Assembly: GCA_041640595.1 (NCBI GenBank)
Contig: JBEPZY010000002.1
Span: 146,984-210,983, forward strand
DNA: 64,000 bases
Origin: Gemmatales bacterium
Lineage (GTDB): Bacteria; Planctomycetota; Planctomycetia; Gemmatales; HRBIN36
Direction of reading: 5' to 3'
Below, in pieces: positions 1 to 52,240 of the stretch. The notes under the pieces were generated by a model. It worked only from the letters and a program-made list of their open reading frames with translations, had not been told where the DNA came from and did not search any database. Position numbers and translations under genes: made by a program. Numbering within the stretch: position 1 is the stretch's first letter; every line of letters starts with the position of its first letter.

Positions 1-771
1 GGCTTCGACCTGCAGGCGATTCGGCGAGCCATCGAACAACTGCGTCGCCTCAATCCCCGACCAGCAGCAGCCTTTGCCCCTCAGGCCGAACGCTACGTCG
101 TCCCTGACCTGATCGTGGAACAGGACGAGAACGGCGAATATCAGGTTCGGCTGGTGGATGACTACGTGCCCGAATTACGCATCAGCAAACGCTACCTGGA
201 AATGCGGCAGCAGGCACGCGATCCGAAAACCCGCGAATTCCTGGCCAGGAAAATCCAGGCGGCTCGCTGGCTCAAAGAAGCCATCGAACAGCGCAAACGT
301 ACCCTTGAAAAGGTGGCACGCGCCATCCTCCGCCGCCAGAAAGATTTCCTCGAAAAAGGCCCCGAACACATCGTCCCCTTGCGTATGCAGGAGATCGCCG
401 ACGAGGTGGGCGTGCACGTGACCACCGTCAGTCGCGCGGTGGATGACAAATGGATCCAGACACCGCGGGGCCTTTTCCCGTTGCGGCGATTTTTCGGCGG
501 AGGCGTTACCACCGCCCAGGGCGAAGAAGTCGCCTGGGAAACCATCAAGCAGAAACTCCTCGACCTCATTCAGCACGAAGACAAGGCCCATCCCTACAGC
601 GACGAAGAACTGGTGCAGAAACTCGCCGAACAGGGACTCCCCGTCGCTCGCCGCACGGTTACCAAATACCGCAAACTCCTCAATATCCCTTCCTCCCGAC
701 AACGCCGTGATTGGACTCTCGTGCTGCAACGTTCCAACAACCACCACAACACCGAAAACTCTTCCCCGTGA
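1..771 (+). CDS. rpoN: RNA polymerase sigma-54 factor, C-terminal part (5' end outside window)
   Basis: Frame is open from base 1 (GFDLQAIRRAIEQLRRLNPRP...YVVPDLIV). Contains HTH motif IADEVGVHVTTVSRAV and RpoN box ARRTVTKYR. Confidence 0.97.
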   Translation, partial: GFDLQAIRRAIEQLRRLNPRPAAAFAPQAERYVVPDLIVEQDENGEYQVRLVDDYVPELRISKRYLEMRQQARDPKTREFLARKIQAARWLKEAIEQRKRTLEKVARAILRRQKDFLEKGPEHIVPLRMQEIADEVGVHVTTVSRAVDDKWIQTPRGLFPLRRFFGGGVTTAQGEEVAWETIKQKLLDLIQHEDKAHPYSDEELVQKLAEQGLPVARRTVTKYRKLLNIPSSRQRRDWTLVLQRSNNHHNTENSSP

Positions 772-1030
772 ATTCCGCTACATCCGACCAGAGCATATCG
801 CACCGCCTCGCATAGGCGACACAGCCGAAAGCACTTCCGCGGAAATGCCGCATCGCCTTAGAGGGTATCACGCAATCACCCCTAAGTGACACGACCAAAA
901 ACACTCGCCCATAAACGCCGGCGAGCCCAACAAACCAGTGGTGGCATGTCGCCTTTTCCTTGCTACTGCGCACCGCCAGTTTCGCCGCCTCGAGAACCGC
1001 ACATCTGCAACCGCGTTCGCGCGCAAACAG

Positions 1031-1711
1031 GAGCGGCTGGCGTAAGCCAGCCGTGGGAAAGGTTCGCCGTTGCACGCCGGAAACGTACATTTGCAACCGC
1101 CTCCGCACATGCAACCGAGAGCGGCTGGCGTAAGCCAGCCGGAGTACGGGAAGCGAATGTGCGGAGCGAAACGTAATCCGTCCGCAAAAGCCGGTCGCCG
1201 TTGCAAGCGCGAATCCGAACCACGGCGGGCTGACGCCCGCCGCTCTTGGTTGCCGATTCGATCGTCCGCCGAACAGTGCTCGGTTGTTGTCGCACCACCG
1301 CCGGTTCACGCACCCACGGCGGGCTGATGATCGCCGCTCTCGAAAACGTGCGTTTGTGCATAGCAAAAATCGTTTTTGCTTCGGCAGACCTTCGCATCGC
1401 AAGCCAAGAGCGGGGGGCGTAAGCCCCCCGTGGGGAACATCCGCTGTTGCGAATCGGAAACGCACATCGCAGGCGATATGTCGCGCATGCAACCAAGAGC
1501 GGGGAACGTAAGCCCCCCGTGAGATGCAGTCCGTATGCGAGCGCGAAACCGGAAATCCCGCACATTGCCGTTGCAGACGCGGTTTGCACACCCACGGCGG
1601 GCTGACGCCCGCCGCTCTCGATTGCCGATTCGATGGTCCGCCAAACAGTGCTCGGTTGTTATCGCACGAGCGCCCGTTCACGCACCCACGGCGGGCTGAC
1701 GATCGCCGCTC
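1031..1711. repeat. REP-like palindrome cluster 1 (8 copies, both orientations)
   Basis: GAGCGGCKGGCGTVAGCCMGCCGTGG-type units start at 1031, 1119, 1408, 1497 (forward) and 1220, 1314, 1592, 1686 (reverse), between convergent rpoN and cysteine desulfurase genes. Confidence 0.92.
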
Positions 1712-1831
1712 TGGTTCACCGTTCGCAGATCGCTTGTGGTTTTGCTCACGGCGATCGCTGGTAGGTCTGATAGCAAAACTCCGGTAAGGGCGGCGCCCGT
1801 CGGAGTCGCAGGTGATGATTCGCGGCCGCTG

Positions 1832-3007
1832 TTAGCTGCGATGGGAAAACTCCGGTAAGGCCGAGAGGTCGTCTTCCTGGCTGAGTTCGCGCAGTTCACG
1901 AACGATAGCGGCAATGATTTCGACGGCCTGAGCGATTTCCTGGTCCGTATTGAGATGGCTCAGGCTGAAACGAACCGCAGAGTGGAGTCGTTCGGGCGGC
2001 AATCCCATGGCTTGCAGTACCGGCGAGGGTAACAGCGAGCCACTCGAACACGCCGAGCCTGCCGAACACGCTATCCCCGCCAAATCCAGTCGCATCAGCA
2101 AAACCTCGGCACGGCAACCCGGAAAGGAAACGTTGACCGTATTCGGCAGGCCACCAGCTTCGGGGCCATTCAGGAATATCGGGGCACAGCTTTGCCGCAA
2201 TCCCTCCAGAAACCTTTGCCGCAATTCCAGCACCCGCTGCCGACGGATTTCCTGCTGGCGATGGGCCAGTTCGACCGCTTTGGCCAGGCCAACGATCAGG
2301 GGCACCGGTTCGGTTCCCGGCCGCTGGCCTCGTTCCTGATGCCCTCCCCGAAACAGCGCTCGTAACGGCGTACCACGATGTACCAGCAAAGCACCGACTC
2401 CTTTCGGACCGTGCAATTTATGCCCCGATAAACTCAAACTGGTGACACCGAGCTGATGAAAATGCACTGGTATTTTTCCGACCGCCTGCACAGCATCGCA
2501 ATGCAAGGGGATATTGCGTCGGCGACAAAACTCGGCAAATTCCGCGACCGGTTGCACGGCTCCGGTTTCGTTGTTAGCCAGCATCAGGCAGGCCAGCTTG
2601 ATTTCCTCGTTCAGATTCTCGCAAGCCGACACGTCAACCACGCCATCCGGGTTTACGGGAATCTCTCGCCACCAGTAGCCGCGCTGCGTCAACGCCTGCA
2701 CCGCTTCCCACACCGAAGGATGCTCGATGCGGCTACAGCAGATGCCACCGATTCCGCGGGGCAGGCCAAACACCGCTAAATTGTTTGCTTCCGTAGCGCC
2801 GCTGGTGAAAATGACTTCGTCCGGCTCGGCACCGAGATAATGGGCGATCTGCTGCCGGGCATCTTCGATGGCCTTGCGAGCTTTGCGGCCCAGTGCGTGT
2901 GCACTGGAGGCATTCCCGAAACAGGTGTCCCAGAACGGCTCCATCGCCGCTCGCACTTCCGGCAACAACGGTGTGGTGGCGTTATTATCCAGATAAATCA
3001 TGGTCAT
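1832..3007 (-). CDS. iscS: Cysteine desulfurase (IscS/NifS family, PLP-dependent)
   Basis: IYLDNNATTP start, FTSGATEANN, HCDAVQAVGK, PLP lysine in LSGHKLHGPKGVG, catalytic Cys in SAGSACSSG. Confidence 0.93.
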   Translation of the reverse strand: MTMIYLDNNATTPLLPEVRAAMEPFWDTCFGNASSAHALGRKARKAIEDARQQIAHYLGAEPDEVIFTSGATEANNLAVFGLPRGIGGICCSRIEHPSVWEAVQALTQRGYWWREIPVNPDGVVDVSACENLNEEIKLACLMLANNETGAVQPVAEFAEFCRRRNIPLHCDAVQAVGKIPVHFHQLGVTSLSLSGHKLHGPKGVGALLVHRGTPLRALFRGGHQERGQRPGTEPVPLIVGLAKAVELAHRQQEIRRQRVLELRQRFLEGLRQSCAPIFLNGPEAGGLPNTVNVSFPGCRAEVLLMRLDLAGIACSAGSACSSGSLLPSPVLQAMGLPPERLHSAVRFSLSHLNTDQEIAQAVEIIAAIVRELRELSQEDDLSALPEFSHRS

Positions 3008-4479: not shown

Positions 4480-4631
4480 GCACAGGTTCCTTAGTGTACC
4501 GCGCTGGCAAGGGCACGGTTCCGGCTATTCCTTGTGTTTACCCCGGTCATTGCACAGAGCGACGGTTTTTATCTATACCATTTCGCCTGTCCGGAGACAA
4601 TCGAAAGGGGAGGTGCGATTTGTCCGAAGGA

Positions 4632-6056
4632 TCACGATTTAGCGGCGTGCTGGTTCGGGGTCGAGGTGATGGGAATCCAGCGCTGGGGCGGTTCGCCGAC
4701 GTCTAAGTAAATATCCTGGCCGCTTTTTTCGAGGCACATGCGATCGAGCGTAGCCTGGGCTTCTGCACCGATTCGCCCAATGCAGCCGGCTAAGCAAAAA
4801 CGTTGCCCCTCTAATTCCTGAGCCCGCTGGCCCGACTGGTGATAGAATCGCAGCACACACTCCTGAGCTCCCAGGAGGAGCCTCGCCTGGTATCGCTGAT
4901 CGGGAGAGCTCCAGCTCAGGACGCGCTGCCCCGATTCGTGCCCACTGGCTGCTGCCAGCAGGGAGTGCAGAATTGTCCTCGGATAGGCTAAGGTCGGTAT
5001 CAGCGGTACGGTTTCGAGATATAAACGTCCCGTCGGTATTTCCGCAGCCTCGGCAGTATGTTCTTCGGGTTCCCCGCACGGTATGGGTGGACGGAATAGC
5101 CCACGCAGGATGTCCATTTCCGCCGCCTCGGCCGCAACCAGTTCAGTACCTGCGGTGGCGGTAATCGCTTGCTCCAGGAGATCGGTTAACCAATCCCGGC
5201 TTTCCTGAGGAAAACTAATACCATCAGCCACAGCGAGCGCATCCAGCAAATCGCTAAACTTCCAGGTCGTGATGTCCAGGTCGGCAAAATCTTCTAAGTC
5301 TTCGCGCAGGCCTGCGGCTAATGTTACGATCCAGTCGTCGGCCAGCAGAAAGACCTCCGGATGCTCCCCTAACCAGTCAAGACATTTCCGAATGCTCGCC
5401 TGATGGGTATCTAAGTCCTGGCGTAACTTATCGAATACTATATTCGGCTGCCAGGCTTGCTCACTGGGTGACGGCGTGTGGAGAAATTCAATCGCCAGTG
5501 TTGCCAGCGCATGCACTAATTCCGCGTCATCCAGCTGCTGAAGCAAGGCGATCGCTTTATTAGTGGTATTGTGCACACTATCATCGCACCAGCTCTCTGG
5601 ATCGGCAAACTCGGAATCCGCGGCCAGCTCTTCCGCGCGATCGCACCAGCCTTCTAAATAGGAGGTTCTAAGAGCCTGAGCGGCCAGCATCACGCCGTGT
5701 TCCTGAAACACCGTAACTGCCCAGCCGATAACTGGCTCATATTGATTGTATAGATGCCTCCACTGCCGATCGTGATTGGGCTTTGTCGCGGGCCGAGTAG
5801 ATTGATAGCGTTTCGAGGGAAGCAAACTGCCTGAGTAGGTGCCGAGATGAGAGCGGTAAACAAGGCCTATGCTGGCCAGAAAACGATAACATTCCTCCGG
5901 CGGAAGGCTGACCGGTGAGGATAGTGGCTTCTGCGACCAGCTGGCACGCAAGGTGCTGAGTTGATCCAGCGCTTGCTGCACGGGATGAGTAACCCGGACG
6001 CGATACGAACCGCTTGCCGTCAACTGCTGAATCGTTGCCTGTAATTCGCACCTCAT
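4632..6056 (-). CDS. Hypothetical protein, possible anti-sigma/partner of the upstream sigma-like gene
   Basis: Long ORF; ATG at 6056 is preceded by GGAGG. Acidic helical middle, then LLAAAS and a beta-rich C-terminal domain. Function inferred from position only. Confidence 0.6.
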   Translation of the reverse strand: MRCELQATIQQLTASGSYRVRVTHPVQQALDQLSTLRASWSQKPLSSPVSLPPEECYRFLASIGLVYRSHLGTYSGSLLPSKRYQSTRPATKPNHDRQWRHLYNQYEPVIGWAVTVFQEHGVMLAAQALRTSYLEGWCDRAEELAADSEFADPESWCDDSVHNTTNKAIALLQQLDDAELVHALATLAIEFLHTPSPSEQAWQPNIVFDKLRQDLDTHQASIRKCLDWLGEHPEVFLLADDWIVTLAAGLREDLEDFADLDITTWKFSDLLDALAVADGISFPQESRDWLTDLLEQAITATAGTELVAAEAAEMDILRGLFRPPIPCGEPEEHTAEAAEIPTGRLYLETVPLIPTLAYPRTILHSLLAAASGHESGQRVLSWSSPDQRYQARLLLGAQECVLRFYHQSGQRAQELEGQRFCLAGCIGRIGAEAQATLDRMCLEKSGQDIYLDVGEPPQRWIPITSTPNQHAAKS

Positions 6057-6263
6057 AACTAATTCCTCCCATATAAGAGCTGGTATCAATAATTTTCACC
6101 GCATAAGTCTGAACCCCGATTGCCCTCAGTCTTAATCGGCCAGCTAACGTGCAGGTTCTGGCTGGAGCTGATTAGCCATCGCTCAGCAATTAGGCCCTAA
6201 GCTGGCACTAATAATTTCACACAGCAGCATAGTTCGTCGTGCGTGTTCCTCCTTGATATCATT

Positions 6264-7316
6264 TCAGGCATCTGTGTTGTCATCTTCGAGCAGTGCATTG
6301 AGAATGCGAATCTGATCCGGAGTAAGCCCTGAGTTGTTCTCTCGCAATTTATGATAAACTATGCGCATCCGTCGCACCCATTGCCGCCAGCAATTGCCGC
6401 TGGCTTTAACAGAAACAATTACCGGCACGTTTGCATTGGGATTACGCGCGGCACCATTAGCATGTGACAATTGTTGCACAATCCAAATATATCTGGGCCT
6501 GACGTTGTTGTTTCGGATAAGGTTATCCACGTGGGCCACGAGTTCACCCACGGTCGGCGTCCACGCAACTATGCGCCTCTGGCACCATCCCTGGCACGGA
6601 TGATTTCCCCAGCCCGAATGTGGTTTCGAACCGTTGCAGTCCAGGCAGATCAGGGCCTGGTATTGCTCACACTGCTCGAAGCACTCACCGACATATCGTA
6701 GCACATCCTCACCGTTCGCTACGCCGGGGTTGTTTTCATGAAGAACACGGTGAATAAGTCGGCTCAACTGCATACGGACGCAGAGCAATAACACCGCGAA
6801 ATAATCCACGCCATTCCTGCGCTGACCTAGCGGACTAAGTTTCTCGGAACGTAATAAGGTAACGAGCGCGGCTTGCAGATTGCGCTTCAGGTTTGCGAGG
6901 CGGTCACGCTCGGGTTCGTCCTGTTGTTGCTGGGGATCCGCGGGCTGATTTTCTAATTGTTCTTGATCACGCAGCCTCTCGCGCCGTTTGCGGTTTTCCG
7001 TTCGAGCTTGGTTTATCAAAACGGTTTTCACCCAGGCCAGGAAACTGCTGTCTTGCCGATCCGGATCGTAAGCGGGAGCGCGTCCGTCTCGCGGCCTCTG
7101 AACCAGTTTTTCCCAGATGCAACTAACACCATTTTCCATAACCCACTGGCGAACTTCACGAGGGAAATGGATGTCACAGTTAGCGATGAGACTCTCTAAC
7201 ACAGGGAGCACATGCTCATTGAATAACTGGTTAGCCTCTTCTATGGGAACCTTGGGGTCTTGGATACGGCGTAAAATCGCTCGGAAATCGTGGGGCAATT
7301 CCTGGGGCTGCGGCAT
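6264..7316 (-). CDS. Divergent sigma-70/ECF-like protein
   Basis: 350-aa ORF with GGAGG RBS. Region-2-like segment CIWEKL...YDPDRQDSSFLAWVKTVLINQARTENRKRRER and C-terminal WRQWVRRMR resembling the end of region 4. Confidence 0.55.
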   Translation of the reverse strand: MPQPQELPHDFRAILRRIQDPKVPIEEANQLFNEHVLPVLESLIANCDIHFPREVRQWVMENGVSCIWEKLVQRPRDGRAPAYDPDRQDSSFLAWVKTVLINQARTENRKRRERLRDQEQLENQPADPQQQQDEPERDRLANLKRNLQAALVTLLRSEKLSPLGQRRNGVDYFAVLLLCVRMQLSRLIHRVLHENNPGVANGEDVLRYVGECFEQCEQYQALICLDCNGSKPHSGWGNHPCQGWCQRRIVAWTPTVGELVAHVDNLIRNNNVRPRYIWIVQQLSHANGAARNPNANVPVIVSVKASGNCWRQWVRRMRIVYHKLRENNSGLTPDQIRILNALLEDDNTDA

Positions 7317-7579
7317 AGGGCGATCCTCCGTGGCTTAGCTCGGATTGGCCCGAAACCGTTACAGATTAACAATAGCCGGCTGACGAGAAACAGCAAGGGG
7401 CCTATTATGTTTTCTTTGCTGACGAATCGTCGTCGCGCCCTTCTATCGCCTCGTTTCAATGCTCGCGCTATTACGTTTTCTTTGTTGCCCAATTGTCGGA
7501 CGGCTGGCGCTCTCGATTGTTCGTTCGCTGGTCGCCAACAAGACCCCGCGATTATCACTCACCGACCGGATCACGCACG

Positions 7580-7787: not shown

Positions 7788-8159
7788 TACGGAAGCCGGA
7801 TTGTAGGCGGTAAACGTAATCACCTCGAAGGCGGTTTCCACTCGAAGACTGCCACACGCTACGAAAGGCGGATCGTGCATGGTAAAGGTAATCACTCCGC
7901 GAACACGGCGGTTGGCCAATGCCGGCACTTAATCGGTTTCGCGGTTCGCTGGAGTGAGGGAAAGCGGTTAATCCGATTGAGCGCCAATATCTACGTTGAC
8001 TGCATGGTTTTCGGAAAATTACGCCACTATTGAAAATGAACAGTTCATCCCTACACTGTTCGCCTATATTCGGGGCGCAAACTTCGCAAGATGCATCAGA
8101 GACATAGCCTTTGATGGCTTGCGGAGACGAAAGGGCTTTCGCAACACAGGAGGATGCAC

Positions 8160-10678: not shown

Positions 10679-10956
10679 CCCATTCTCACTCCTGGCTGAC
10701 GAAATCGCCATTCGCTTCGTGGGGCATTTGGGGTCGTCGACCGTGACCGCGCCTATTCTCGCTCCTAGCTGACGAAATCGCCACTCGCTTCGTGGATGGC
10801 CTTTGTCCCGGAGGCCGCTCATTCTCGCTGCCGGACTTCTGGGTCGGATGCTGTGGACTCGCGCCTCGCAAAGACCAACACCGCACGACCGAACCCGCCA
10901 CGAGGGCAGGCCGACCACGTGGATGCTGTGGACTCGCGCCTTGCAAAGACCAACAC
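10679..10956. repeat. Two pairs of interspaced direct repeats (periods 73 and 75 nt)
   Basis: ATTCTCRCTCCTRGCTGACGAAATCGCCAYTCGCTTCGTGG at 10682 and 10755. GGATGCTGTGGACTCGCGCCTYGCAAAGACCAACAC at 10846 and 10921. Confidence 0.9.
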
Positions 10957-10963
10957 AGGGGGA

Positions 10964-12990: not shown

Positions 12991-13069
12991 GATTTGTGCT
13001 GGCGTGGTTGGCACGACGCATGTTCGCTGCAAAAAGCGCCATCCGCGATGCAGAAACGCACATTCACAA

Positions 13070-14334
13070 GAGCGGCGGGCGTCAGCCCGCCGTGGCTCGG
13101 ATTCGCACTTGCAACGGCGACCCGCTTTTGCGCACTGATTACGTTTCGCACCGCACAGTCGCTTCCCGTGCCACGGCTGGCTCACGCCAGCCGCTCCTGC
13201 TTGCGCGACGTGTGTTCGGCGAGCAAAAGCGATATTTGCGATGCACAAACGAACGTGCATAAGAGCGGCGGGCGTCAGCCCGCCGTGGGTCGAATTCGCG
13301 CTTGCAATCGCGACCCGCTTTTGCGCACTGATTACGTTTCGCACCGCACAGTCGCTTCCCGTACCACGGCTGGCTCACGCCAGCCGCTCTTGGTGCACGA
13401 GGTGTGTTCGGTGTAAAGGGCGCGATCTCTGGTGTGGACGCGCACGCCCACAAGAGCGGCGGGCGTCAGCCCGCCGTGGGTCGGATTCGCGCTTGCGACG
13501 GCGACCCGCTTTTGCGCACTGATTACGTTTCGCCCCGCACATTCGCTTCCCGCACCACGGCTGGCTCACGCCAGCCGCTCTTGGTGCGCGACGTGTGTTC
13601 CGCGAGCAAAAGCGACATTTGCGATGGACGAACGAACGTGCACAAGAGCGGCGGGCGTCAGCCCGCCGTGGCTCGGATTCGCCCTTGCAAGGGCGACCCG
13701 CTTTTGCGCACTGATTACGTTTCGCCCCGCACATTCGTTTCCCGCGCCACGGCTGGCTCACGCCAGCCGCTCTTGGTGCACGACGTGCATTCGCTGTAAA
13801 GGGGGCGATCTCTGCTGCGGACGCGCACGCCCACAAGAGCGGCGGGCGTCAGCCCGCCGTGGCTCGGATTCGCACTTGCAACGGCGACCCGCTTTTGCGC
13901 ACTGATTACGTTTCGCACCGCACAGTCGCTTCCTGCGCCACGGCTGGCCCACGCCAGCCGCTCTCGGTGCACGACGTGTATTCGGTGTAAAGGGCGCGAT
14001 CTCTGCTGCAGACGCGCACGCCCACAAGAGCGGCGGGCGTCAGCCCGCCGTGGGTCGGTAACGCATCTGCAATGGCGCCCACCTTCTCCCGCTAAACACA
14101 TCTGCCCAGCACGATCCGCTCCCGCACCACGGTGGGCTTACGGCGACCGCTCCTGGTTGCACGTGCGCTTATTGTTGCAGAACTGCGTTTGGCCGTGAGC
14201 GAGTCGGTTCCCGCACCACGGGGGGCTTACGCCCCCCGCTCTTGGTCGCCAGCGCGGACGCCATTGCAGGTGTACGTTTCGTAGCCGCGAGAATGCTAAC
14301 CTTCGCACGGGGGGGGCTTACGCCTCCCGCTCCT
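13070..14334. repeat. REP-like cluster 3: tandem array of ~192-nt BIME/REPIN-like units (14 palindromes)
   Basis: Forward palindromes at 13070, 13263, 13454, 13646, 13837, 14028. Reverse ones 101 nt later at 13171, 13364, 13555, 13747, 13938, plus 14127, 14215 and about 14305. Confidence 0.96.
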
Positions 14335-14618
14335 GGTTGGCGATCGTGGTGGCGTGCATCATGGGCGCGAGCGAGTTCCGGTGTCCTCACGAACACGTAG
14401 CACCGAACCGGCGCTAGCGACCCCTCCGTCCGCAAACGAGATACTTCATGGCACCTGCCCCACGAGCGGGTAGCACCGAATCCACGCTGGCCAACATTCC
14501 GGCGGGTTGCTATCCCCTTGCCAGGCGTCCAGCGCTAGCCCGAAAATTCCGTCAAACAACCACCTATTCTGACCCTGGCGGGCAGTGTGTCGGTTCACCC
14601 ACTACGATACCAGTGGCA

Positions 14619-17624: not shown

Positions 17625-18097
17625 TCCTGTGGACTGACGGTGATGCTCTCGGCATCGCTCGATTCCGGTAATTGCCCGGCCGGTTTGAGGAGCGGGAAAC
17701 GTTTCAGCAACGCTTCAATGTTTTCCAGGCGGCGATTGGTTTCCTGCAAGCGGGCGTTGGTCTGTGCCATTTCCTGCCGCGTCAACTGCAATTCGCTCTG
17801 GATGGCGTCGAGCCGATCGGTAACCGGTGCCAGGCAGCCCATGCAAAGGGCCAATCCCGCTCCCCATCCCAGCCGCCAGCAACAACGCCATACCCCGACC
17901 AGACGTGTCCACCAATCACCTGCCGACCACCGGCCAGGTATCACGCACCGCTTGCCGCCCACCGAGGGTCGTTTCCCTCGGCCCCACCTGCCGTCCTGAA
18001 GGCAGAGGAAGGAACTCTTCCTCTGCCTGCCTCGCTCGCCCAACGTTTGACAGCTGACTGACACAACACCGTCCTGGCGACCAACCGGCTGGCTCAT
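17621..18097 (-). CDS. Small putative lipoprotein with coiled coil (true start probably downstream of 18097)
   Basis: LALCMGC lipobox-like motif followed by heptad segment LDAIQSELQLTRQEMAQTNARLQETNRRLENIE. Stop overlaps the GT2 stop. Confidence 0.5.
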   Translation of the reverse strand: MSQPVGRQDGVVSVSCQTLGERGRQRKSSFLCLQDGRWGRGKRPSVGGKRCVIPGRWSAGDWWTRLVGVWRCCWRLGWGAGLALCMGCLAPVTDRLDAIQSELQLTRQEMAQTNARLQETNRRLENIEALLKRFPLLKPAGQLPESSDAESITVSPQD

Positions 18098-18421
18098 TGC
18101 CCGTCCCTCCCGCTAAATCCAATCGGCCAGACGAGGTGCGCGACTGCAACGATTTTGCTCAAACTTCCGCCCGTACCACCCGCGAAAACGATGAGTCTTG
18201 GATGTCGCTTGGCTTGGCCCCGGTGCCATCTCGGCGCTAGCATCATCCACGAAAATCACGAGACTTTGACTTCGGTTTGCATTGCCCCGGTGCTATGTCG
18301 CACGAGCATCGCCCACTGAAATCGCGAAGTAAGGGATGTGCACGAAAATCCGGCTTGCTCAACCGCACGCCTCACGCAACCCATGAGAGCCCACACTTTA
18401 CTCAAGCGTTCCTCGACGGGA

Positions 18422-18850
18422 TCGCCGCAACGTCAGCGCTCATATTCGCCGTCGCAGGCGTGACCCTCCTTTTTATGCCCGGCCCCTGCCGCTGGGTCGC
18501 CGCAACGTCAACGCTCATATTCGCCGTCGCTGGTGCACAATGTTTTGTCGCTGCCGGTCTTTCACCCGGCCGGCCGCTGAAAACACCGCCGAGGTCAGCG
18601 CAGACACGACCACGATGGCTCGGAAGACCGCTGACAGTACGTGTGCCGACCACCGTTGCATTCGCGTGGTGTGGCACCCCGAAAACAGTCGGAAACAATG
18701 CCCCTGGAACTGCCGCATGCCAATCACCGTTGCCATCCCGTGCAGCGATACCACGGGGGGCTTACGCAGATGCACAGGTGTTCGTCCTCATGGTCGGGGG
18801 AGTTTGCATTTGCGTCCAGCGGCGCCACGGGGGGCTTACGCCCCCGCTCT
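18422..18850. repeat. Interspaced direct repeats (period 74-75 nt) and REP-like cluster 4
   Basis: TCGCCGCAACGTCARCGCTCATATTCGCCGTCGC at 18422 and 18497. CACCGTTGC at 18651 and 18725. CCACGGGGGGCTTACGC at 18751 (half REP) and 18825 (full REP). Confidence 0.85.
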
Positions 18851-19356
18851 TGTGCTGCGATGCGAATGTCTGCCGGCGAAAAAACGATTTTTGCGATGCA
18901 CAAATGCACCGCAAGAATGGTCGCAATGTTTTCTTGCCGAAGGAGGCAGAATTGAGAGGTTTACTGTGGAAAATTAGCAGCATCCTTGCAACTGCGTTCC
19001 TGTGGAAGGCTGCGCTTAACACCGGCACGTGGAGCGGTTAGAATAAGGTTTTCCGACAGGTCTCCGGATAAAACGATGGATGCAGGGTCGGAGACCCATC
19101 AAGCGATGGGAGCATTGCGAAGTTCTGCTGCTGGACATGGCAGCGAGCTCGGTGGAGCGGTACTCCGATGCAGGCGACGAGGCGAAAAAATCCTTGTGCC
19201 ACCGGGTGAAGAGCCAGGCGGCGTATCCGGCAGCGAGCGCGGCATCTCGCTGACAGCTCTATCGCTGCCCGATACGCCACAGTGGAGTACCCAGCAGCGA
19301 GCGGGGTGCTTGTTGGCCTGGCGGCTCATGGAAACGCCTACCGGGAACAATCACGT

Positions 19357-20208: not shown

Positions 20209-20250
20209 TGCCGCCGGTGCTCACTCCGGCCTGCTAAACGAGGCTCAACC

Positions 20251-21187: not shown

Positions 21188-21214
21188 TGGCGGTTGGCGT
21201 GTCGTTGATGCCCG

Positions 21215-22243: not shown

Positions 22244-22431
22244 CGCAACATCCTCGCAGCAGTTTTGTTCTCAGTTGCTTTCTGCCATTATAGCGACGAC
22301 CTGCAGGAAGCAACCACGCCCTGTTTTACCGCACCGGGTGGACACACCGCCAGCCCCGAACTTCCGCTGGCGTTGACTGATCGCACTCCGCATCGCCCGG
22401 ACATCCTCGGGCGGGCAGAAGCAGACCGGAC

Positions 22432-22590
22432 GAAACAACTGACCGCCCCGACGGATCGCGTTTTCGGCGACCGGACCGGCGTGCGTGGGGAACAAGTGAA
22501 CGGCGGAAACAACCGACCGCCCCGACGGACCGTGTTTTCGCTGACCAGACCGGCTCGCGCTGAGAACAAGCGAGCGGCGGAAACAACATC
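22432..22590. repeat. Degenerate tandem repeat, period 74 nt, about 2.2 copies
   Basis: GAAACAACYGACCGCCCCGACGGAYCGYGTTTTCG at 22432 and 22506; GAAACAAC again at 22580. Confidence 0.85.
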
Positions 22591-25405: not shown

Positions 25406-25833
25406 TGAAGCTGCCGTTACACGCATTGCATCGCTGTTCGGCCCACCACCCGTGCCAGCACATTGCACCAGCATTGCGACAGAGCCCTCAAAGGCTGAAC
25501 CTGTGTCGAACGCGGCTGACCACCCGTGCCACTACACTACCCCAACCCCGCAACGCCCGCCGGTACGCCGCAATAAGCTCCTACAGTCGTACCGGCGGTT
25601 ACGCCAACGCGGAAGAATTCTGGCTGGCAGCAGGCGCAACCGAAGCAGAACAAGAACAGGGTCCAGGCATTTCTCGCCCTCAACGCGCACCGGCGAGGAC
25701 ACGAGAGCAACGCGGTACACTTCTGCTGCCGCTTTGCCCGGTTACCTGGTTGGGCTCGAAGATGGAAACGTCCGGGACTTATCAGAACCGATACCTGACA
25801 GAGGTGCAGCGCTGGGCACGGTGAAGGGTTCGG

Positions 25834-27013: not shown

Positions 27014-27198
27014 ACGATTCCCGCTTCTCGTTCGCTGGTGATGATTCGTTTAAGCCGAGCCTGCTCGGAAGGTCTGAGGTACCGTGGACGATTCCCGCTT
27101 CTCGTTCGCTGGTGATGATTCGTTTAAGCCGAGCCTGCTCGGAAGGTCTGAGGTACCGTGGACGATTCCCGCTTCTCGTTCGCTGGTGATGATTCGTT
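27014..27198. repeat. Perfect 74-nt tandem repeat, 2.5 copies
   Basis: ACGATTCCCGCTTCTCGTTCGCTGGTGATGATTCGTT at 27014, 27088, 27162, with identical 37-nt intervening segments. Confidence 0.97.
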
Positions 27199-27336: not shown

Positions 27337-27502
27337 CCTGTCGCACACCATCCATAACACACAGCCCTATAGTCAGCCGCCGCCAAACGTTGCACAACCG
27401 GTCCCCGTCGTACACCATCCGCAACATACAGCACTTCATCGCCGACCTCATAAAGGCGGGGCCGGGCCGCCCCCGTCGTACACCATCCGCAACACACAGC
27501 AC
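27337..27502. repeat. Three interspaced direct repeats (period 67-68 nt)
   Basis: GTCGYACACCATCC..AACAYACAGC at 27340, 27407, 27475 with dissimilar spacers. Confidence 0.85.
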
Positions 27503-27509
27503 CCAGGCC

Positions 27510-28120: not shown

Positions 28121-28269
28121 TGGACTCGGCAGTCGTTCTTCGTCAAAGGGGAGTTGCGGTCAGAGGAACGGTTGCGTCGGTGTACGCGGGCACGGTTTGC
28201 GACGAGTTGCGAGCAAGTTACAGGTGGTTGGAAAAAGTTGTGCGTCGGTGGACGCTCACGGCTGGCGGG

Positions 28270-28675
28270 GCGGCGATGGTAATTTTCGACCAGGCATGTT
28301 GTCGTGGTTGCGCTGGTCAGGGAGGCGACCACGGGGCCTTCAACGGCGATTGTAATTTTCCACGGGGGCACGTTGTCGTCACAGTGGGATGCTGGAAGGC
28401 AATCAGCGGCCTCCCAGAAGCGGCGGTCATTTTTGGGCGGGGCATGTTGGCGTGGTACTGGTGGTTCGGGAGCGCGAACCATCTGTCAGCACGATGTCAC
28501 CAAAACCGCGCATGTTGCCGTGGTAGTGGTGGTTCGGGGGCACGCCAGAGGCTTCCCAGCGGCGATGGTCATTTTCCTCGGGAGCATGTTCTCGTCGCCG
28601 TGGGGATCCGGAAGACAATGAGCGGCCTACCAGAAGCGGCGGTCATTTTCGGCGGGGGCGTGTTGCCGGGGTGGG
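28270..28675. repeat. Degenerate six-unit array, period 71-74 nt
   Basis: Motif GCG..GGTMATTTTY.....GCRYGTT anchored at 28280, 28353, 28427, (about 28498), 28569, 28643. Units 2-3 are re-duplicated as units 5-6. Confidence 0.75.
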
Positions 28676-32299: not shown

Positions 32300-32303
32300 G
32301 ACC

Positions 32304-33587: not shown

Positions 33588-33680
33588 AATAGTCGGAATG
33601 AAATGCGGCGAATCGCGTAGCTGGTGATGGTGCTGCCAGGCTGCGCGCCGCCGGAGACGAACCACCATCGAGCTTCCCCT

Positions 33681-34805
33681 ATGAGTGCCTCACGCATCCC
33701 GGCTAAGCTGGCCCTGGAAGATGGACTGGTTTTTAGCGGCTTCGCTTTCGGAGCCGAGGGCGAACGTTTCGGCGAAGTCGTGTTCAATACCAGCATCACC
33801 GGTTACCAGGAAATCCTGACCGACCCGTCTTACAAGGGTCAGATTGTGGTGATGACCTATCCGCATATCGGCAATTACGGAGTCAACGCCGAGGATCGGG
33901 AGTCGTCCCGGCCGCAGGTGGAAGGTTTCGTCGTTCGGGAATTTACTCGCCAACCCAGTAACTGCCGGGCCGAGCAAGCCCTGGAAGAATACCTCCGCGC
34001 CTACGGCATCATTGGCATCGAGGGCGTGGACACGCGGGCCCTGGTTCGGCATATCCGCATTCGCGGGGCGATGATGGGCGTGCTCTCCGCCGTGGACCTC
34101 GACGATGCCTCGCTCGTCGAAAAAGCTCGCCGAGCGCCTCCCCTGGTGGGGCGGGACCTGGTGCGGGAAGTCCTTACCAGCGAAGTACGCACCTGGCAGG
34201 AGGGATTCACCAGCCGCTTTGCCGCCGACTTGTTGCCTGCCCGTCCGGCAACGCATCATGTCGTCGCTCTCGATTTCGGCATGAAATGGAACATTCTCCG
34301 GTGTCTGGTGCAGGTGGGTTGTCGTGTGACCGTGTTGCCGGGCACCGCCAGCGCAGAGGAAGTGTTACGGCACAACCCGGACGGTATCTTTCTGTCTAAC
34401 GGTCCCGGCGATCCAGCGGCTCTGGGTTACGCCATCGAAACCATCCGGCATCTCGTCGGCAAAAAACCGATCTTCGGCATCTGTCTTGGGCACCAATTGC
34501 TGGGTCTGGCGCTGGGCGGCGAAACCTTCAAGCTCAAGTTCGGGCATCGCGGGGCCAATCATCCCGTGCTGCACTACGCCACCAACCGCGTGGAAATTAC
34601 CACGCAAAATCACGGTTTTGCCGTCCGTCTGGAAACTTTACCCCGCGACCTGGAACCGACGCATATCAATCTCAATGACCGAACACTGGAAGGCATGCGG
34701 CACCGACGTTTGCCCGTCTTCAGCGTGCAGTACCATCCCGAAGCCTCCGCTGGACCCCATGACAGTTACTACCTGTTCGAGGAATTCCGTCGGCTCATGG
34801 GTTGA
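33681..34805 (+). CDS. carA: Carbamoyl-phosphate synthase small subunit
   Basis: [34 protein letters not shown] and [12 protein letters not shown]. Confidence 0.98.
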
Positions 34806-34925
34806 TGTGCCGCGGCGACGGCCTGGCTTGCCCGACCGAACCGCATAGCGGCTCAGGTCTTTGTGAGCTAGAATGACGCGGGCGAAGTCTCGGCGGACTG
34901 CTGGCTGCACTGCTGGGATGCGAAC

Positions 34926-36404
34926 ATGACAGCGACGCAGGCTTTGACCAGGCAAACTATCGCCAACCAGCTGAACGGTGTCTCAGCCGAACTGCTGGCG
35001 GCACTGCGAGCGATTGTCGGTGCGGACGGGGTGCTGACGGCTCCCAGCGATCTGGCGGTTTATGAGTGCGACGGTTACACCATTGCCAAAAATCGCCCCG
35101 ACGTGGTCGTCTTCCCGACCAGCACCGCCCAGGTCGTGGAAATTGTCCGCGTGTGTAACCGTTACAAAGTTCCCTTCCTGCCGCGCGGAGCAGGAACGAG
35201 TTTGTCCGGCGGATGTTTACCAGTTGGTGGCGGCGTGCTGATATGTTTGACACGCATGAAACGCATACTGGAAATCAATTACCGCGACGGTTACGCCGTC
35301 GTTGAGCCGGGCGTGGTCAATCTGTGGCTGACACGGGAAACCTCTCCGCGGGGCTGGCATTTCGCTCCCGATCCGTCCAGCCAGGGAGCGTGTACGATCG
35401 GGGGAAACGTAGCCACCAATTCCGGTGGGCCGCACACGCTGAAATACGGCGTCACCGTCAACCATGTGCTCGGTCTGGAAATTGTCCTGCCCGACGCCAC
35501 GGTGGTTCGCGTGGGCGGGCCGCCTGACGATTTGCCCGGTTACGACCTGACCGGTGTCCTGGTCGGTTCCGAGGGAACACTGGCGATCGTGACGAAGATA
35601 TGGGTGCGACTGACGCGCAATCCGGAAAGCTGGCGGACGCTGCTCGCCGTCTTCGATTCCGTGGACGATGCCACGCAAACTATCAGTGCGATTATCGCGG
35701 CCGGCATCATCCCCGCTGCTCTGGAGATGATGGACCAGCTGATTCTTCAGGCAGTGGAAGCGGCTTTTCACTTCGGCTTTCCTCTGGATGCGGGAGCGGT
35801 TTTGCTCATCGAAGTGGACGGTTTGCAGACCGGGCTGGATGAGGAGGCGGAGCGAATCATGGCTCTGGCTCAGGCTCATCACGCTCGCTCTGTGCGTCTG
35901 GCACGCGATGAGGCTGAGCGCCAGCTTTTGTGGAAATGCCGCAAACAGGCTTTCGGTGCCGTCGGCCGTCTCGCTCCCAGTTATTGCACCCAGGACGGAG
36001 TTGTGCCACGAACGCGTTTACCGGAAATGCTGCGACTCATTCGGCAAATCGGCGAAAAATACCAGATTCGCATCTGCAATGTCTTTCATGCCGGCGACGG
36101 CAATCTTCACCCCATCCTGCTTTTCGATGAACGCGACCCGGATCAGGTTCAGCGCGTGCTGCGAGCCAGCGAGGAGATTCTGGACGCCTGTTTGCAGATG
36201 GGCGGCAGCGTGACCGGCGAACATGGGATCGGCGTCGAAAAGCTGGATTTCATGCCCCGCATGTTCAGCCCCGCCGATCTGGCGATGATGGAGCGGCTCC
36301 GTCGGGCCTTCAATCCTGAAAATTGCCTCAGCCCGGGCAAGATGCTTCCCACAGCCGGTGCCTGTATCGAACCGACACGCCCGGGTCGTCGCGCTGCTCT
36401 CTAG
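34926..36404 (+). CDS. glcD: FAD-linked oxidase, glycolate oxidase subunit GlcD-like
   Basis: RGAGTSLSGG, APDPSSQ.ACTIGGNVATNSGG.H.LKYG, FHAGDGNLHP and TGEHGIG.EK. Confidence 0.92.
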   Translation: MTATQALTRQTIANQLNGVSAELLAALRAIVGADGVLTAPSDLAVYECDGYTIAKNRPDVVVFPTSTAQVVEIVRVCNRYKVPFLPRGAGTSLSGGCLPVGGGVLICLTRMKRILEINYRDGYAVVEPGVVNLWLTRETSPRGWHFAPDPSSQGACTIGGNVATNSGGPHTLKYGVTVNHVLGLEIVLPDATVVRVGGPPDDLPGYDLTGVLVGSEGTLAIVTKIWVRLTRNPESWRTLLAVFDSVDDATQTISAIIAAGIIPAALEMMDQLILQAVEAAFHFGFPLDAGAVLLIEVDGLQTGLDEEAERIMALAQAHHARSVRLARDEAERQLLWKCRKQAFGAVGRLAPSYCTQDGVVPRTRLPEMLRLIRQIGEKYQIRICNVFHAGDGNLHPILLFDERDPDQVQRVLRASEEILDACLQMGGSVTGEHGIGVEKLDFMPRMFSPADLAMMERLRRAFNPENCLSPGKMLPTAGACIEPTRPGRRAAL

Positions 36405-37515
36405 GCGTGCCGCCTGCTGACGGAAGGGAAAGTTGGTAGTAGTCATGGGCGTCGTCGCGCTGCTCTCTGGGCGTGCTGCTTGAACCAACCGCTACCGCCA
36501 TCCTCGCCGACACCGTCAGCGTCTGAGCCCCGGCAACCACACGGACTAGCAGCTGGGGACTCACTCCGCCGGGATTCTCGCCGACACCACCAACGTCTGA
36601 GGCCCGACAACCACACGGACTAGCAGCTGGCGACTCACTGCGCCGGGATTCTCGCCGACACCACCGGCGTCTGAGGCCCGGCAACTCCATCACCGTCGTC
36701 AGCGCTTGTGGAAACCCGCTGCATTGCCGGAAAAGCCGTGCTACCCCTCGGCTGATATCAATTCCACCCACCGGGACCGCGCCAATGGCGTGGCTGGTTC
36801 ACCCTCGTTCATAATCAACTCGGCCGATACCAATTCCACCCACCGGGATTGCGCCTGCCTGATTGCCGGAAAAGTCGTACTACCCGTCGGCCCCCTGCCA
36901 ACATCGAAAACCGTCCTAATGCACACCACGCCGCGAGAGCGACTTACGGCTTTTTCGCCGGGGCTTTCCTGCGAACATCGAAAACGGTCCTAATGCAAAC
37001 CACGCACCGCGGATTGCGGAATTCAGCTCCTCGCGGGATGGCTGCCAACATCGAAAACCGTCCGGATGCAAACCACGCACGCGTTTGTAGTGTGCCCGCG
37101 GAGTTAGCAACCGTTTCTGGCCACGAACTGACGCCCACCGCTCCTGGTTGTGTGGTCGCTAGTCGCTGAATGTCATGCGGCTTCCGAGTGCGTGCGGTTT
37201 TTCGGGGTGGGTTAGCGTTCGCAGCGTTCGCTCCAACAACAAAGTGATCTAGCGCAAGCCCCCATGCCGCGACCGCCAGACGGGTCAGATGTGGGTTAGC
37301 GTTCGCTCCATCAACAAAGCGATCTAGCTCCATTGATGATGACGGCACGATCGTCGGTCGCGTTGAGGTTGGCGTTCACTCCGTCAACAAAGTGATCTAG
37401 CTCCCGTCGGCTTCCGAGTGTGGGCGCTTATTCGGGAAGGTTAGCGGCCTAGCTTTGACTGGCACAAAGTTTGATAACGAAGCCGTGCGGGCGCTTATCC
37501 GGAAAGGTTAGCGGC
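36385..37515. repeat. Stack of six unrelated short direct-repeat families between convergent glcD and parB
   Basis: Anchors 36385/36451; 36503/36577/36651; 36747/36819; 36900/36974/37047; 37237/37312/37385; 37422/37489. A degenerate REP half lies near 37121. Confidence 0.92.
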
Positions 37516-38389
37516 GGAGGTGTTCGAGGAGGCGTTCAAAATCGTCGTTGTTCTGGAAATGGAGAATAATCTGGCCTTTTTCCCTGCCGCGGAGACGGAT
37601 TTCGACACGCGTCGCCAGGCGTTGTCGCAATTCTTCTTCGATGGCCTGAACATGCGGAGTCTTTTCTGCACTCGGGCGGGTGGTGTACCCCTGAGCGTTG
37701 GGGTCGGAAGGATGGCTCTGGACTTCTTCCCGGACAAGCTGTTCGACCGCCCGCACGGATAAGCCGCGGGCAATGATTTCCTGGCAGACTTCTTCCTGGC
37801 GTTGCGGTGAGGGCAGGCTGAGCAAGGCACGGGCATGGCCGAAACTGATTTGTCCAGTACGGATGGCGTCCTGGACACTGGGCGGCAAATCGAGCAAGCG
37901 AATGAAGTTGGTAACCGTGGTGCGATCCACGCCAATTTTGCGGGCCAGTTCTTCATGAGTAACGCCATAACGCTGGATATATTCGGCAAAGCCCTGGGCC
38001 TTTTCGATAGCGTTCAGGTCGCTGCGTTGCAGATTTTCGACGAGAGCGGCCTCGAAAACCTGCTGGTCGTTGAAATCCACAATGCGGACGGGAATCTCCT
38101 TCCAGCCCGCTTCCCGTGCGGCACGAAGGCGTCGTTCACCGACCACCACCTGGTAGCCACGCTCGGTAGGCCGAACCAGAATCGGTTGCAACAACCCGTG
38201 CGTTTGCAGGCTCTGTTTCAGAGCTTCCAGCTCTTCCGGATCGAAATCGCGGCGGGGTTGTAGCGGATTGGCTTCGATCTGATCGAGGGGGACCTGCAGA
38301 ATCGCCCCGGCTGGGTGTTCCGGGGAGTGTTTGTCCACAGCACCGAGCAGAGCTTCCAGCCCTTTTCCGAGCCGACGTTTTTCGGTCAC
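37508..38389 (-). CDS. parB: ParB/Spo0J chromosome partitioning protein
   Basis: RRLGKGLEALL, NPLQPRRDF, GLLQPILV, GERRLRAA, ENLQRSDLNAIE and HTH; GGAGG RBS before GTG at 38389. Confidence 0.96.
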   Translation of the reverse strand: MTEKRRLGKGLEALLGAVDKHSPEHPAGAILQVPLDQIEANPLQPRRDFDPEELEALKQSLQTHGLLQPILVRPTERGYQVVVGERRLRAAREAGWKEIPVRIVDFNDQQVFEAALVENLQRSDLNAIEKAQGFAEYIQRYGVTHEELARKIGVDRTTVTNFIRLLDLPPSVQDAIRTGQISFGHARALLSLPSPQRQEEVCQEIIARGLSVRAVEQLVREEVQSHPSDPNAQGYTTRPSAEKTPHVQAIEEELRQRLATRVEIRLRGREKGQIILHFQNNDDFERLLEHLRR

Positions 38390-46107: not shown

Positions 46108-46520
46108 GTTCAACGAGCGCACGGCAACGTTCGCAGAGATTACGCCTGCCGCATTGCTACGCCGAGAAGGAGGGACACAGTTCAACGAGCGCACGGCAAT
46201 GCTCGCAGAGATTATGGGTCGAATTTGGGCGGACAGATTGCAGGTTGGGGCTCGGACCGGTTGAGCGCCCACTCTAAGGAGAATACGGGTCGAATTGGCA
46301 CGGACGGATTGCATGGCCGCTGGCCGCATTTGCGCTCGCCGTCTGCAGATTACGGGTCGGATTTGCACGGACAGATTGCAGGTTGGGGGCCTCGGACCGG
46401 CCGAGCGCCCACCCTAAGGAGATTACAGGTCGGATTGGCGCGGACGGATTCCAGGAGCACAAACGCTGTATGCGAGGTCGAGCTGGAGTTAGAGGTCGCA
46501 GGTCGAATTTCCGCGCGCCG
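46108..46520. repeat. Two chained direct-repeat families, period 67-74 nt
   Basis: GTTCAACGAGCGCACGGCAAYGYTCGCAGAGATTA at 46108 and 46180. GAWTAYRGGTCGRATT.G..CGGACRGATT at 46210, 46281, 46348, 46421. Confidence 0.88.
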
Positions 46521-48747: not shown

Positions 48748-48879
48748 GCCGCCGGAGGGTTCCTGAAACGGACAGTGTAGCAGGATGCATGCCCGGAGAT
48801 GGTTGCCACTACCCGATGAGTTTGCCCACTGGTAACCGCAGTATAACAATCCCAGTGGCAGCGGATGGCCTGGGGTGAA

Positions 48880-48968
48880 GGCGAACCGGTAAAACTCCGT
48901 TACGCGGTAAGCACCGCAACAAAGACGGTCGCTACCGGCAACCACGGCGAACCGGTAAAACTCCGTAC
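48880..48968. repeat. 21-nt direct repeat, period 66 nt
   Basis: GGCGAACCGGTAAAACTCCGT at 48880 and 48946. Confidence 0.85.
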
Positions 48969-49066
48969 CGGATCGGCCAACATTGCCGGTTTGGAAAAGA
49001 GACGGCCCCAGCATCGAATCAAGCCTTCTGCGGGCCTCGCAGGGCCTCTAAAGCAAGGAGACAGGC

Positions 49067-51556: not shown

Positions 51557-51630
51557 TCACCCATTCCGGAAAATCGAGAACTGTTCGGTTGAGCCGCGGG
51601 CAGAGCTGTCGAAGGCCACCGGGAAATCGG

Positions 51631-52240
51631 TTCATCGTGCGTTGTGCGAAATTGCGAGTGCCCAGGTGCGGAACACGCGAATCCCGATTCCGCGGCGAAA
51701 CAGATTCATCGTGCGTTGTGCGAAATTGCGAGCGCCCCGGTGGGGAACACGGGAAGCCCGATTCCGAAGCGAAACGCATTGACCGCCACGGCCAAAAATG
51801 GACGGATTGCCGGTTGAAATCGTTGCGCTGCGTTTGGGCCCGAACCAGTTCCCCCGCGCTAAGGCGAGAATGGATCGATCGGCGTTCCTAGTCGTGAGCT
51901 GGCACCGTGAAACCTACGCAAATCTTTATTGCCTTGGAGGGCTATGCGGCGTTCCTAGTCGTCGTGAGCTGGCACTGTGAAACCGTGCGATCGGTCCGAG
52001 CGAAACGTCGCTAACAATGAGACATGGGGGCATGATTCGCACGTGACTGGCGATTCGGCGAGCACCTGGAGCCAGCGTTGGGATCACCGTCACCGTGCGG
52101 TTCACTCACACAGAAAGCAGTGTGCGCGGCTCGAGCACGACGAGAGCGGTTCGGTTTCGGGTAGCGGCGTTCGCTCACGCAGAAGGTAGTGTACGTGGTT
52201 TGACGTTCGAGCGGGTGCAGTCGATTCGTTGCTGCGGCGC
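51631..52240. repeat. Three direct-repeat pairs (periods 74, 67-70, 69 nt)
   Basis: TTCATCGTGCGTTGTGCGAAATTGCGAG at 51631/51705. CGGCGTTCCTAGTC(GTC)GTGAGCTGGCACYGTGAAACC at 51880/51947. GTTCRCTCACRCAGAARGYAGTGTRCG at 52100/52169. Confidence 0.85.

Follow-up and report, generated by a model that had tools for sequence, protein, structure and literature searches.

Intergenic repeats whose unit number varies between strains are familiar from systems of repetitive extragenic palindromes (REPs) with their REP-associated tyrosine transposases (RAYTs), and from bacterial minisatellites. Duplication of a set length is also the product of Cas1-Cas2, the integrase complex of CRISPR adaptation, which makes two staggered joints one repeat length apart, so that gap filling leaves the target duplicated around the insert. 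Non-canonical integration by the Escherichia coli type I-E system, yielding "neo-CRISPR" loci, is said to have been reported by Nivala, Shipman and Church in 2018. The available portions of four publications describe off-target integration into neo-CRISPR loci in E. coli overproducing Cas1-Cas2 (10.1101/148544, PMC7054753, PMC9456107, PMC6698737), and one of them regards how often this happens in nature as unclear and the support from two other species as circumstantial (10.1101/148544). As far as the accessible text of the sources goes, off-target integration in vitro is documented for Pyrococcus furiosus Cas1-Cas2 (PMC6698737), promiscuity in vitro for Thermotoga profunda type III-A Cas1-Cas2 without HU, which is relieved by HU (PMC13769266), and reverse transcriptases (RTs) fused or adjacent to cas1 for some adaptation modules (PMC5513706). 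Here we analyze a 64,000-nt stretch of a Gemmatales bacterium (the window; C2:146984-210983 of the 4.45-Mb genome G000, 42 contigs, 95.5% complete), in which intergenic gaps hold mutually unrelated direct repeats at strikingly constant periods. These repeats are very probably the result of natural, genome-wide off-target full-site spacer integration by two Cas1-Cas2 complexes. The sequencing runs that contain window DNA are hot-spring and microbial-mat metagenomes.

Anatomy of the fixed-period repeats

An earlier note on this DNA had listed repeats at constant periods of ~74 and ~67 nt, and all 28 of its coordinate-listed pairs (21 groups) are present in the window at those periods, with best window identities of 24-29/30 or 25-37/37 (binomial p <= 1.2e-5 each). 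Scanning the window at periods of 50-99 nt returned matches at 66-75 nt and at the REP periods of 86-94 nt, plus one other at 56 nt. Genome-wide, 2,097 ungapped repeat pairs were collected at periods of 40-130 nt, and 719 were left after removal of canonical arrays, coding DNA (2,999 genes called by our own hexamer-trained finder, 77% coding, with approximate coding/non-coding borders) and multi-copy DNA. The period histogram of these pairs is not flat, as the note had anticipated: it has narrow peaks at 65-68 nt (238 pairs) and 72-76 nt (280 pairs), with ~0-11 pairs at each other period, and at those nine periods no pair arose in any of three block-shuffles of the 1,921 gaps. Assembly error, which the note had thought improbable for the diverged copies, is excluded because the strain X11 (~1.5% diverged and independently assembled) and the metagenome locus L046 (99.5-99.7% identical) show the same units across the parts they span; run X2, nearly identical and possibly the source sample, was not counted as independent.

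The periods are thus real, and the notion that whole ~70-nt segments are duplicated is not: in 17/21 window groups the repetition covers no more than the initial ~30 or 37 nt of each period, the remainder being unique. Whole-unit tandem copies are confined to four groups (22432, 27014, 36503 and 51631) and are secondary. Throughout the genome, copy identity drops to background past ~30-31 nt in the 65-68 class (180 pairs) and past ~37-38 nt in the 72-76 class (198 pairs). Therefore, the unit consists of a target copy, a 35-39-nt insert and a second target copy, and the length-measuring process that the note had proposed, duplicating and inserting at once, is one that makes a 30- or 37-nt target duplication around such an insert. 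We refer to these structures as 30-class and 37-class scars.

Our test set comprised 443 pairs, 208 at 65-69 nt (30-class) and 235 at 71-77 nt (37-class), with period 70, a degenerate canonical pair on contig C3 and pairs whose similarity extended through most of the unit left out. With a few counted twice, they correspond to ~400 loci in unique non-coding DNA and have added at least 34.6 kb of sequence. Two copies are present at 340/400 loci and three or more at 60; among the latter, 53 have at least two unlike neighboring inserts, some in alternating pairs, and seven consist of whole units repeated head to tail. Since the median copy identity is 81-83% and only a few pairs are perfect, the scar-forming events span a long time, as the note had read from their graded divergence. 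Functional CRISPR arrays were considered and rejected as a description of these loci, given their locus-specific repeats, diverged copies and predominantly two-copy structure. Genes are strongly depleted of scars (about a dozen plausible cases among coding-overlapping pairs), which indicates purging of genic insertions, and no genome-wide excess of old in-frame genic scars was seen: periods of 66 and 69 nt yielded 4-5 genes, and so did 78 and 84 nt. One Ser/Thr kinase-like gene (L190, G000:C3:377522-378670) has a C-terminal tail with two in-frame scars of 72 and 75 nt.

Two adaptation modules and the sources of the inserts

The genome carries two cas1 and two cas2 genes, and the search for a solo Cas1 or an RT suggested by the note found one group II-like RT adjoining a cas1. 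On contig C8, a type I-B set (cas1b, scoring above its family cut-off, cas2, cas4, cas3 and cas5, beside type III-B cmr genes) adjoins arrays of a 30-nt repeat, with 317 copies on C8 and 27 on C10 (344 in total). On C1, cas2, the stand-alone group II-like RT and the second cas1 are followed by 248 copies of a 37-nt repeat. Spacers are 35-39 nt long in both arrays, hence the canonical periods of 65-69 and 72-76 nt. The earlier note had matched the two scar periods to the linkers of REP arrays; they are instead those of the two canonical CRISPR arrays, the REP-like copies recurring at 87-94 nt. In each class, the target duplication is as long as the cognate canonical repeat (30 and 37 nt), and insert lengths agree with those of canonical spacers (36.5±1.0 versus 36.4±0.9 nt for the 30-class; 36.7±1.3 versus 36.8±1.0 nt for the 37-class), a comparison in which period windows set beforehand bound the range but not the shape of the distributions. 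C3 carries a degenerate copy of the 30-nt repeat, and C20 a variant array. Repeated leader-like motifs and several 30-class scars also occur between the I-B cas2 and the array leader (L003:13100-14200, G000:C8:21100-22200).

A canonical spacer sharing 30/31 nt with the window insert at 27435 led to three related viral contigs (L191, L192 and L193). Of the 333 I-B spacers, 50, 34 and 31, respectively, match them, in most cases with CCN located 5' of the protospacer, as against 0/244 spacers of the RT-linked array. At <=8 mismatches, 15/208 30-class inserts and 0/235 37-class inserts match these viruses (Fisher p 9e-6), 7/208 30-class inserts still doing so at <=6 mismatches; the reversed-insert control, to which the complemented one is equivalent and not a second control, gave 0/208 and 1/235. 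At least one weak insert match falls within a repeat array belonging to the virus itself. Degenerate arrays of a 30-31-nt repeat like the host I-B repeat, spaced at ~66 nt, occur at L191:33-730 and L193:~4540-6480; such arrays in I-B-targeted viruses are possibly virus-borne mini-arrays or decoys. The small co-binned element C15 (L188, 9,585 nt) is likewise matched by 31/333 I-B spacers, with 29/32 matches on one strand and a CCN protospacer-adjacent motif (PAM) at 26/32; only 3/443 inserts match it, at 7-8 mismatches. Its six large open reading frames (ORFs) have no PHROG match, and one of its proteins, scanned against viral contigs, found no relative. Exact viral scans with two other young 30-class inserts returned no match, and one of six viral scans overall was productive.

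Other inserts come from the genome itself. Under a strict threshold, which supersedes an earlier loose one (38/443 versus 6 reversed), 10/443 inserts have a distant source in the assembly with unmatched flanks, compared with 0/443 reversed inserts. The sources are four genes, with one match of 37/37, three stretches of 23S rRNA, one overlap with the 5' end of tRNA-Asp, one canonical spacer and one other sequence. Two of the four traced 37-class inserts are 23S rRNA and one overlaps the tRNA-Asp 5' end, whereas one of the three rRNA-derived inserts is 30-class; rRNA makes up 0.3% of the assembly. For the 12 traced 30-class inserts (seven viral and five chromosomal), CCN stands at the best-scoring boundary in eight, versus 17.5% at shifted offsets (p 2e-4). 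The Cas1-Cas2-like ruler integrase that the note had named as one candidate is thereby well supported, by two modules of matching repeat and spacer geometry, viral inserts, the PAM of the I-B class and the empty alleles described below.

These data suggest the following course of events. Each Cas1-Cas2 would join a 35-39-nt prespacer to both strands of a chromosomal site, with the joints spaced as its repeat ruler dictates (type I-B, 30 nt; RT-linked module, 37 nt), and gap filling would duplicate the target around the insert. I-B inserts are drawn from viruses and the host chromosome under CCN PAM selection. The RT-linked module probably takes up RNA too, since its canonical spacers overlap mostly on one strand (61 pairs versus 3), the pattern expected if RNA is the source, and it may likewise write RNA-derived pieces into the chromosome. 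Some sites were reused, acquiring a new insert and a third copy, and recombination between copies would later gain or lose whole units; genic insertions would mostly be purged, with intergenic ones decaying neutrally. When reverse-complemented, several spacer clusters of the RT-linked array (L005:14750-20000; L006, G000:C1:359749-377935) look like ribosome-binding sites and start codons.

What makes integration so unfaithful likely lies outside Cas1 (a host factor, high expression or weak purging), because two unrelated integrases are both affected. Loss of HU/IHF was rejected as the cause, as IHF-like and HU-like (DNABII) genes are both present and apparently intact, with scores below curated cut-offs. 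The I-B Cas1 (L003:14441-15817, C8) has a 97-residue low-complexity insertion in its N-terminal domain, and the I-B Cas1 of a relative, G003 (L159:1879-3309), a sequence-unrelated 112-residue insertion at the same site. In this one chosen region, the insertions hold 30-nt duplications (21/30 at 66 nt, 3/3,000 codon shuffles; 24/30 at 69 nt, 0/3,000), which suggests that the I-B Cas1 may have written into its own gene. As a source of low fidelity the loop was discarded, being confined to the I-B Cas1 when both scar classes are abundant. We entertain, tentatively and with considerable doubt, a broader reading in which CRISPR adaptation acts in this lineage as a general insertional mutator and recorder owing to a host-side loss of fidelity and not to drift alone. 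Two unrelated integrases, one of them RT-fed, may add sequence from viral DNA and from RNA of the cell itself to the chromosome; returns to the same sites may start arrays de novo; and in-frame scars may build new protein segments, including the ~100-residue I-B Cas1 loop.

Target sites, relatives and rival explanations

An empty, pre-insertion allele was found elsewhere in the genome for 16/443 scars (<=4 gap letters), ~10 of them at 86-96% identity. An intact 2.4-kb ORF contains one such paralog, and in another the sequence carries on a reading frame that we take, by its motif, to be transposase-like. Scar repeats are local unique sequence, typically identical to the canonical repeats at 8-13/30 and 10-15/37 positions. 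Mean identity to the cognate repeat nonetheless peaks at shift 0 (9.4 versus ~8.5 of 30; 11.6 versus ~10.6 of 37), and with matrices built de novo from 177 sites (one degenerate canonical pair included) and 155 sites the score of the cognate repeat is reached by only 6 and 0 of 20,000 shuffled repeats, respectively. The 37-class motif matches the 5' end of the 37-nt repeat in one orientation (10.2 versus 1.6). Target likeness to the leader-repeat junction thus appears weak, but in register, and because the sites resemble that junction so faintly, each locus has its own "repeat" at the same period.

Strains and relatives bear on the same question. All contigs of four DNA runs were aligned to window positions 18000-37900. 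X11 differs from the window, among the pieces listed, only by whole units, and L046, the only close strain among 80 metagenome loci, has one extra 74-nt unit at 36590 as the only gap in 19.2 kb aligned. The closest GTDB relatives are 70-78% identical in genes, too far for an intergenic comparison of filled and empty sites; that comparison, as advised in the note, could therefore be made with paralogs inside the genome and not with close relatives, nor with strains, which supplied no empty allele among the window pieces listed. Two genomes of the same genus, G001 and G002 (87% and 93% complete), yielded only the RT-linked Cas1, with no I-B repeat and no cas3 found, and G003 (78% complete) has both systems. 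Under one stricter filter applied to all, the numbers of 30-class and 37-class scars were 192 and 212 in 4.29 Mb of G000, 0 and 21 in 563 kb of G001, 0 and 2 in 469 kb of G002, 3 and 4 in 448 kb of G003, 0 and 2 in 196 kb of G004, 1 and 0 in 190 kb of G005, and 0 and 0 in 929 kb from 79 more distant metagenome loci. Relatives with the RT-linked Cas1 only (G001 and G002) thus have 23 37-class and 0 30-class scars. Scar class follows Cas1 content, and scar load varies about tenfold within the genus.

The earlier note had favored a RAYT/HUH-type enzyme that duplicates ~70-nt segments beside REPs, an idea to which we now give almost no credence. The genome does contain 1,126 REP-like copies, and a threefold excess of scars lies within 500 nt of one (27% versus 8% for random non-coding DNA), so the co-location expected by the note is real for a minority of scars, the other 73% being farther away. 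Scar density is 0.76/kb with REPs versus 0.31/kb without in gaps >1.6 kb, but the order reverses in 400-800-nt gaps (0.35 versus 0.48); the REP effect shrinks or reverses in size-matched gaps, and REPs and scars crowd the same contigs. REP-rich gaps may tolerate insertions, or hairpins may attract Cas1, for which the accessible part of one paper offers a model (PMC9456107). No match to Y1_Tnp, the RAYT domain, was found in the 95.5% complete genome, whereas 6/14 control genomes matched. Moreover, such an enzyme predicts neither foreign inserts nor a CCN PAM nor two classes matching two arrays, and the virus-derived inserts with an I-B PAM largely refute it. Fixed-step copying or slippage peculiar to this lineage, generating neutral minisatellites, is most unlikely as well: it fits the four whole-unit tandem groups and the whole 73-74-nt units by which strains differ, but local copying cannot supply the unique inserts of the other 17 groups, let alone sequences traced to viruses, distant genes and rRNA, and neither the insert nor the second copy is present in the empty paralogs. 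Slippage accounts only for the secondary gain and loss of units.

A division of labor, in which Cas1-Cas2 of type I-B made the 30 class and the RT alone or another enzyme made the 37 class, for example by target-primed insertion, is very unlikely, even though neither a viral source nor a PAM-type test backs the 37 class, the genome has a stand-alone group II-like RT, and rRNA and tRNA sequences figure so largely among the traced 37-class inserts. The 37 class has the same duplication length and insert length as the array next to the RT and cas1, its motif matches the 5' end of the 37-nt repeat in one orientation, and it is present where the RT-linked Cas1 is, although RT and Cas1 travel together. 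There is next to no chance that many genuine CRISPR arrays were acquired from elsewhere and have decayed into these units. The degenerate repeat on C3, the variant array on C20 and the repeat arrays of the viruses would agree with that origin; the scar repeats themselves are local sequence with little likeness to the canonical ones, continue the flanking gene or element in single-copy paralogs, and in some cases duplicate the ends of ordinary genes.

Several observations nevertheless weigh against attributing the scars to Cas1-Cas2. Most inserts have no traced source (7/443 in viruses at <=6 mismatches and 10/443 in the genome, one being in both), and rRNA sources are favored in such matching because rRNA is conserved. 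Four of the 12 traced 30-class inserts lack a PAM, including the window insert at 27435; one rRNA-derived 30-class insert is without it, and the eight PAM-oriented sites resemble the repeat barely better in forward than in reverse orientation (11.0 versus 10.5 of 30). As the 37-class inserts have no match in the three viruses, assignment of that class relies on geometry, motif, relatives and four weaker self matches, and two viral-contig scans with two spacers of the RT-linked array found no targets. Comparison of strains revealed no fully empty versus filled site in the window (X11 pieces listed; 19.2 kb of L046). The relatives are incomplete, partly sampled and not independent. Finally, no lost fidelity factor was found, both DNABII genes looking intact.

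Features of the window and comparison with described systems

The scars and related units of the window are collected below. The locus at 27014 is one integration followed by unit amplification: its third copy matches for exactly 37 nt, and X11 has a simple repeat-insert-repeat that is 74 nt shorter, with 27013 joined to 27088 and nothing between. The insert at 27435 differs from the viral contigs at 2-3 positions of a 34-nt core. In the block at 28280-28643, 68-nt and 71-74-nt units are nested, with higher-order copies at 142 and 216 nt; the 38-nt insert within it has 4 and 6 mismatches in its 34-nt core to L192 and L193, and the I-B PAM CCT stands at its exact boundary in the virus. Phage records had no match to window positions 27300-28700.

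Scars and derived repeat units in the 64,000-nt window; identities are between copies of the duplicated target.
Position	Strand	Feature	Copy identity and remarks
746..855		Old 37-class scar, period 73	25/37; fainter further copy 70 nt on (~884-920), also 25/37, inserts unlike
1756..1863		37-class scar, period 71	30/37; 3' end of aminotransferase class V gene
7402..7497		30-class scar, period 66	25/30; unique insert
7788..7896		37-class scar, period 72	28/37
10682..10791		37-class scar, period 73	34/37
10846..10957		37-class scar, period 75	35/37
14386..14495		37-class scar, period 73	27/37; absent from the earlier note's list
18422..18533		37-class scar, period 75	35/37
18645..18755		Old 37-class scar, period 74	26/37
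22432..22587		Tandemly amplified 74-nt unit	X11 about one unit shorter: 22500 joined to 22586, 12 letters between
25445..25555		Old 37-class scar, period 74	26/37
27014..27198		Young 37-class locus	37/37; three identical 37-nt copies, two identical 37-nt inserts
27340..27504		30-class mini-array	24/30 and 27-29/30; three copies, two different inserts
27435..27472		Virus-derived insert	30/31 nt shared with canonical I-B spacer C8:12370-12406, overlapping its protospacer
28258..28660		Nested 37-class and 30-class block, later block duplication	142 = 74+68; 216 = 74+74+68
28474..28511	+	Insert (38 nt) of 30-class scar, virus-derived	Target copies at 28444 and 28512
36385..36480		30-class scar, period 66	27/30; duplicates last codons of FAD-linked oxidase gene
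36503..36687		Tandemly amplified 74-nt unit	L046 has one unit more
36747..36855		37-class scar, period 72	33/37
36895..37083		37-class mini-array, periods 74 and 73	34/37, 33/37; three copies, two different inserts
37223..37407		37-class mini-array, periods 75 and 73	31/37, 31-33/37; three copies, two different inserts
37419..37515		30-class scar, period 67	27/30; 3' end of parB
46108..46456		37-class unit cluster	46108/46180 34/37; 46208/46279 30/37; 46347/46420 31/37
48878..48973		30-class scar, period 66	24/30
51631..51775		74-nt tandem unit	About two copies
51872..52329		Weak 30-class (51872/51939) and 37-class (52218/52293) scars	19/30; 28/37

Further features lie beside these subjects. 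Dense arrays of REP-like palindromes occupy window positions 1005-1715, 13065-14058 (with a 191-nt higher-order unit at 13065) and 25017-25406, together with a 100-nt tandem repeat. Self-splicing introns are unusual in bacterial 16S genes. Both rRNA genes of this genome are interrupted by large insertions that probably are such introns, to judge from the LAGLIDADG homing endonucleases they encode: two in the 23S gene (4,667 nt; L186, G000:C5:166219-170885) and one in the 16S gene (2,554 nt; L187, G000:C1:23944-26497). Further 23S rRNA genes lie on the small contigs C27 and C36 (GC 0.50 and 0.68), the C27 gene being ~70-77% identical to that on C5, and these contigs probably represent other organisms in the bin.

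How CRISPR arrays originate and how genome damage by Cas1-Cas2 is restrained are open questions that have mostly been studied with overexpression or purified proteins. Some 400 natural errors by two integrases provide an in vivo map of the target requirements of these enzymes, which amount to little more than the ruler length and a few junction bases. The scars display site reuse and preserve old viral and cellular sequences outside arrays, the empty paralogs are ready substrates, and relatives with one or both systems constitute a natural control. Intergenic DNA and in-frame insertions in proteins can thus arise from spacer integration, and scars of this kind may underlie short orphan "CRISPR" calls in genomes.

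The earlier note knew of no described system that explains the repeats. The reaction itself has been described, in E. coli; hundreds of fixed natural scars are what full-text literature searches, with most subscription papers and supplements outside their coverage, did not find reported. Nor did the literature searched yield a description of off-target chromosomal writing by an RT-associated module, rRNA pieces included. Unlike REP/RAYT systems and minisatellites, the scars share no common repeat sequence, occur in a genome with no RAYT gene found, and enclose foreign, unique inserts as long as a spacer. In Streptococcus, ectopic acquisition of spacers also takes place away from the leader end but, in the available text, within the canonical array and at canonical repeats (PMC7999890). 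With RT-associated modules, as far as they are described in the source consulted, the C1 locus shares a group II-like RT beside cas1 and cas2 and a type III-B effector elsewhere in the genome. The P. furiosus and T. profunda experiments, in their accessible accounts, agree with our observations in that non-CRISPR sites share some repeat features and fidelity depends on host factors; those sites were on test-tube plasmids, whereas here the scars are inherited in a genome with HU/IHF-family genes present. The closest likeness is to the neo-CRISPR loci of E. coli, where, according to the portions available, a Cas1-Cas2 spacer inserted outside the array equally makes a new repeat-spacer-repeat from ordinary DNA. 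Those were rare events in overproducing cultures, in contrast to the ~400 loci of widely varying age that are fixed in a wild genome, with two different integrases (I-B and RT-linked), site reuse and later decay. To conclude, these scars represent a known reaction on an unusual natural scale and with two integrases at once.

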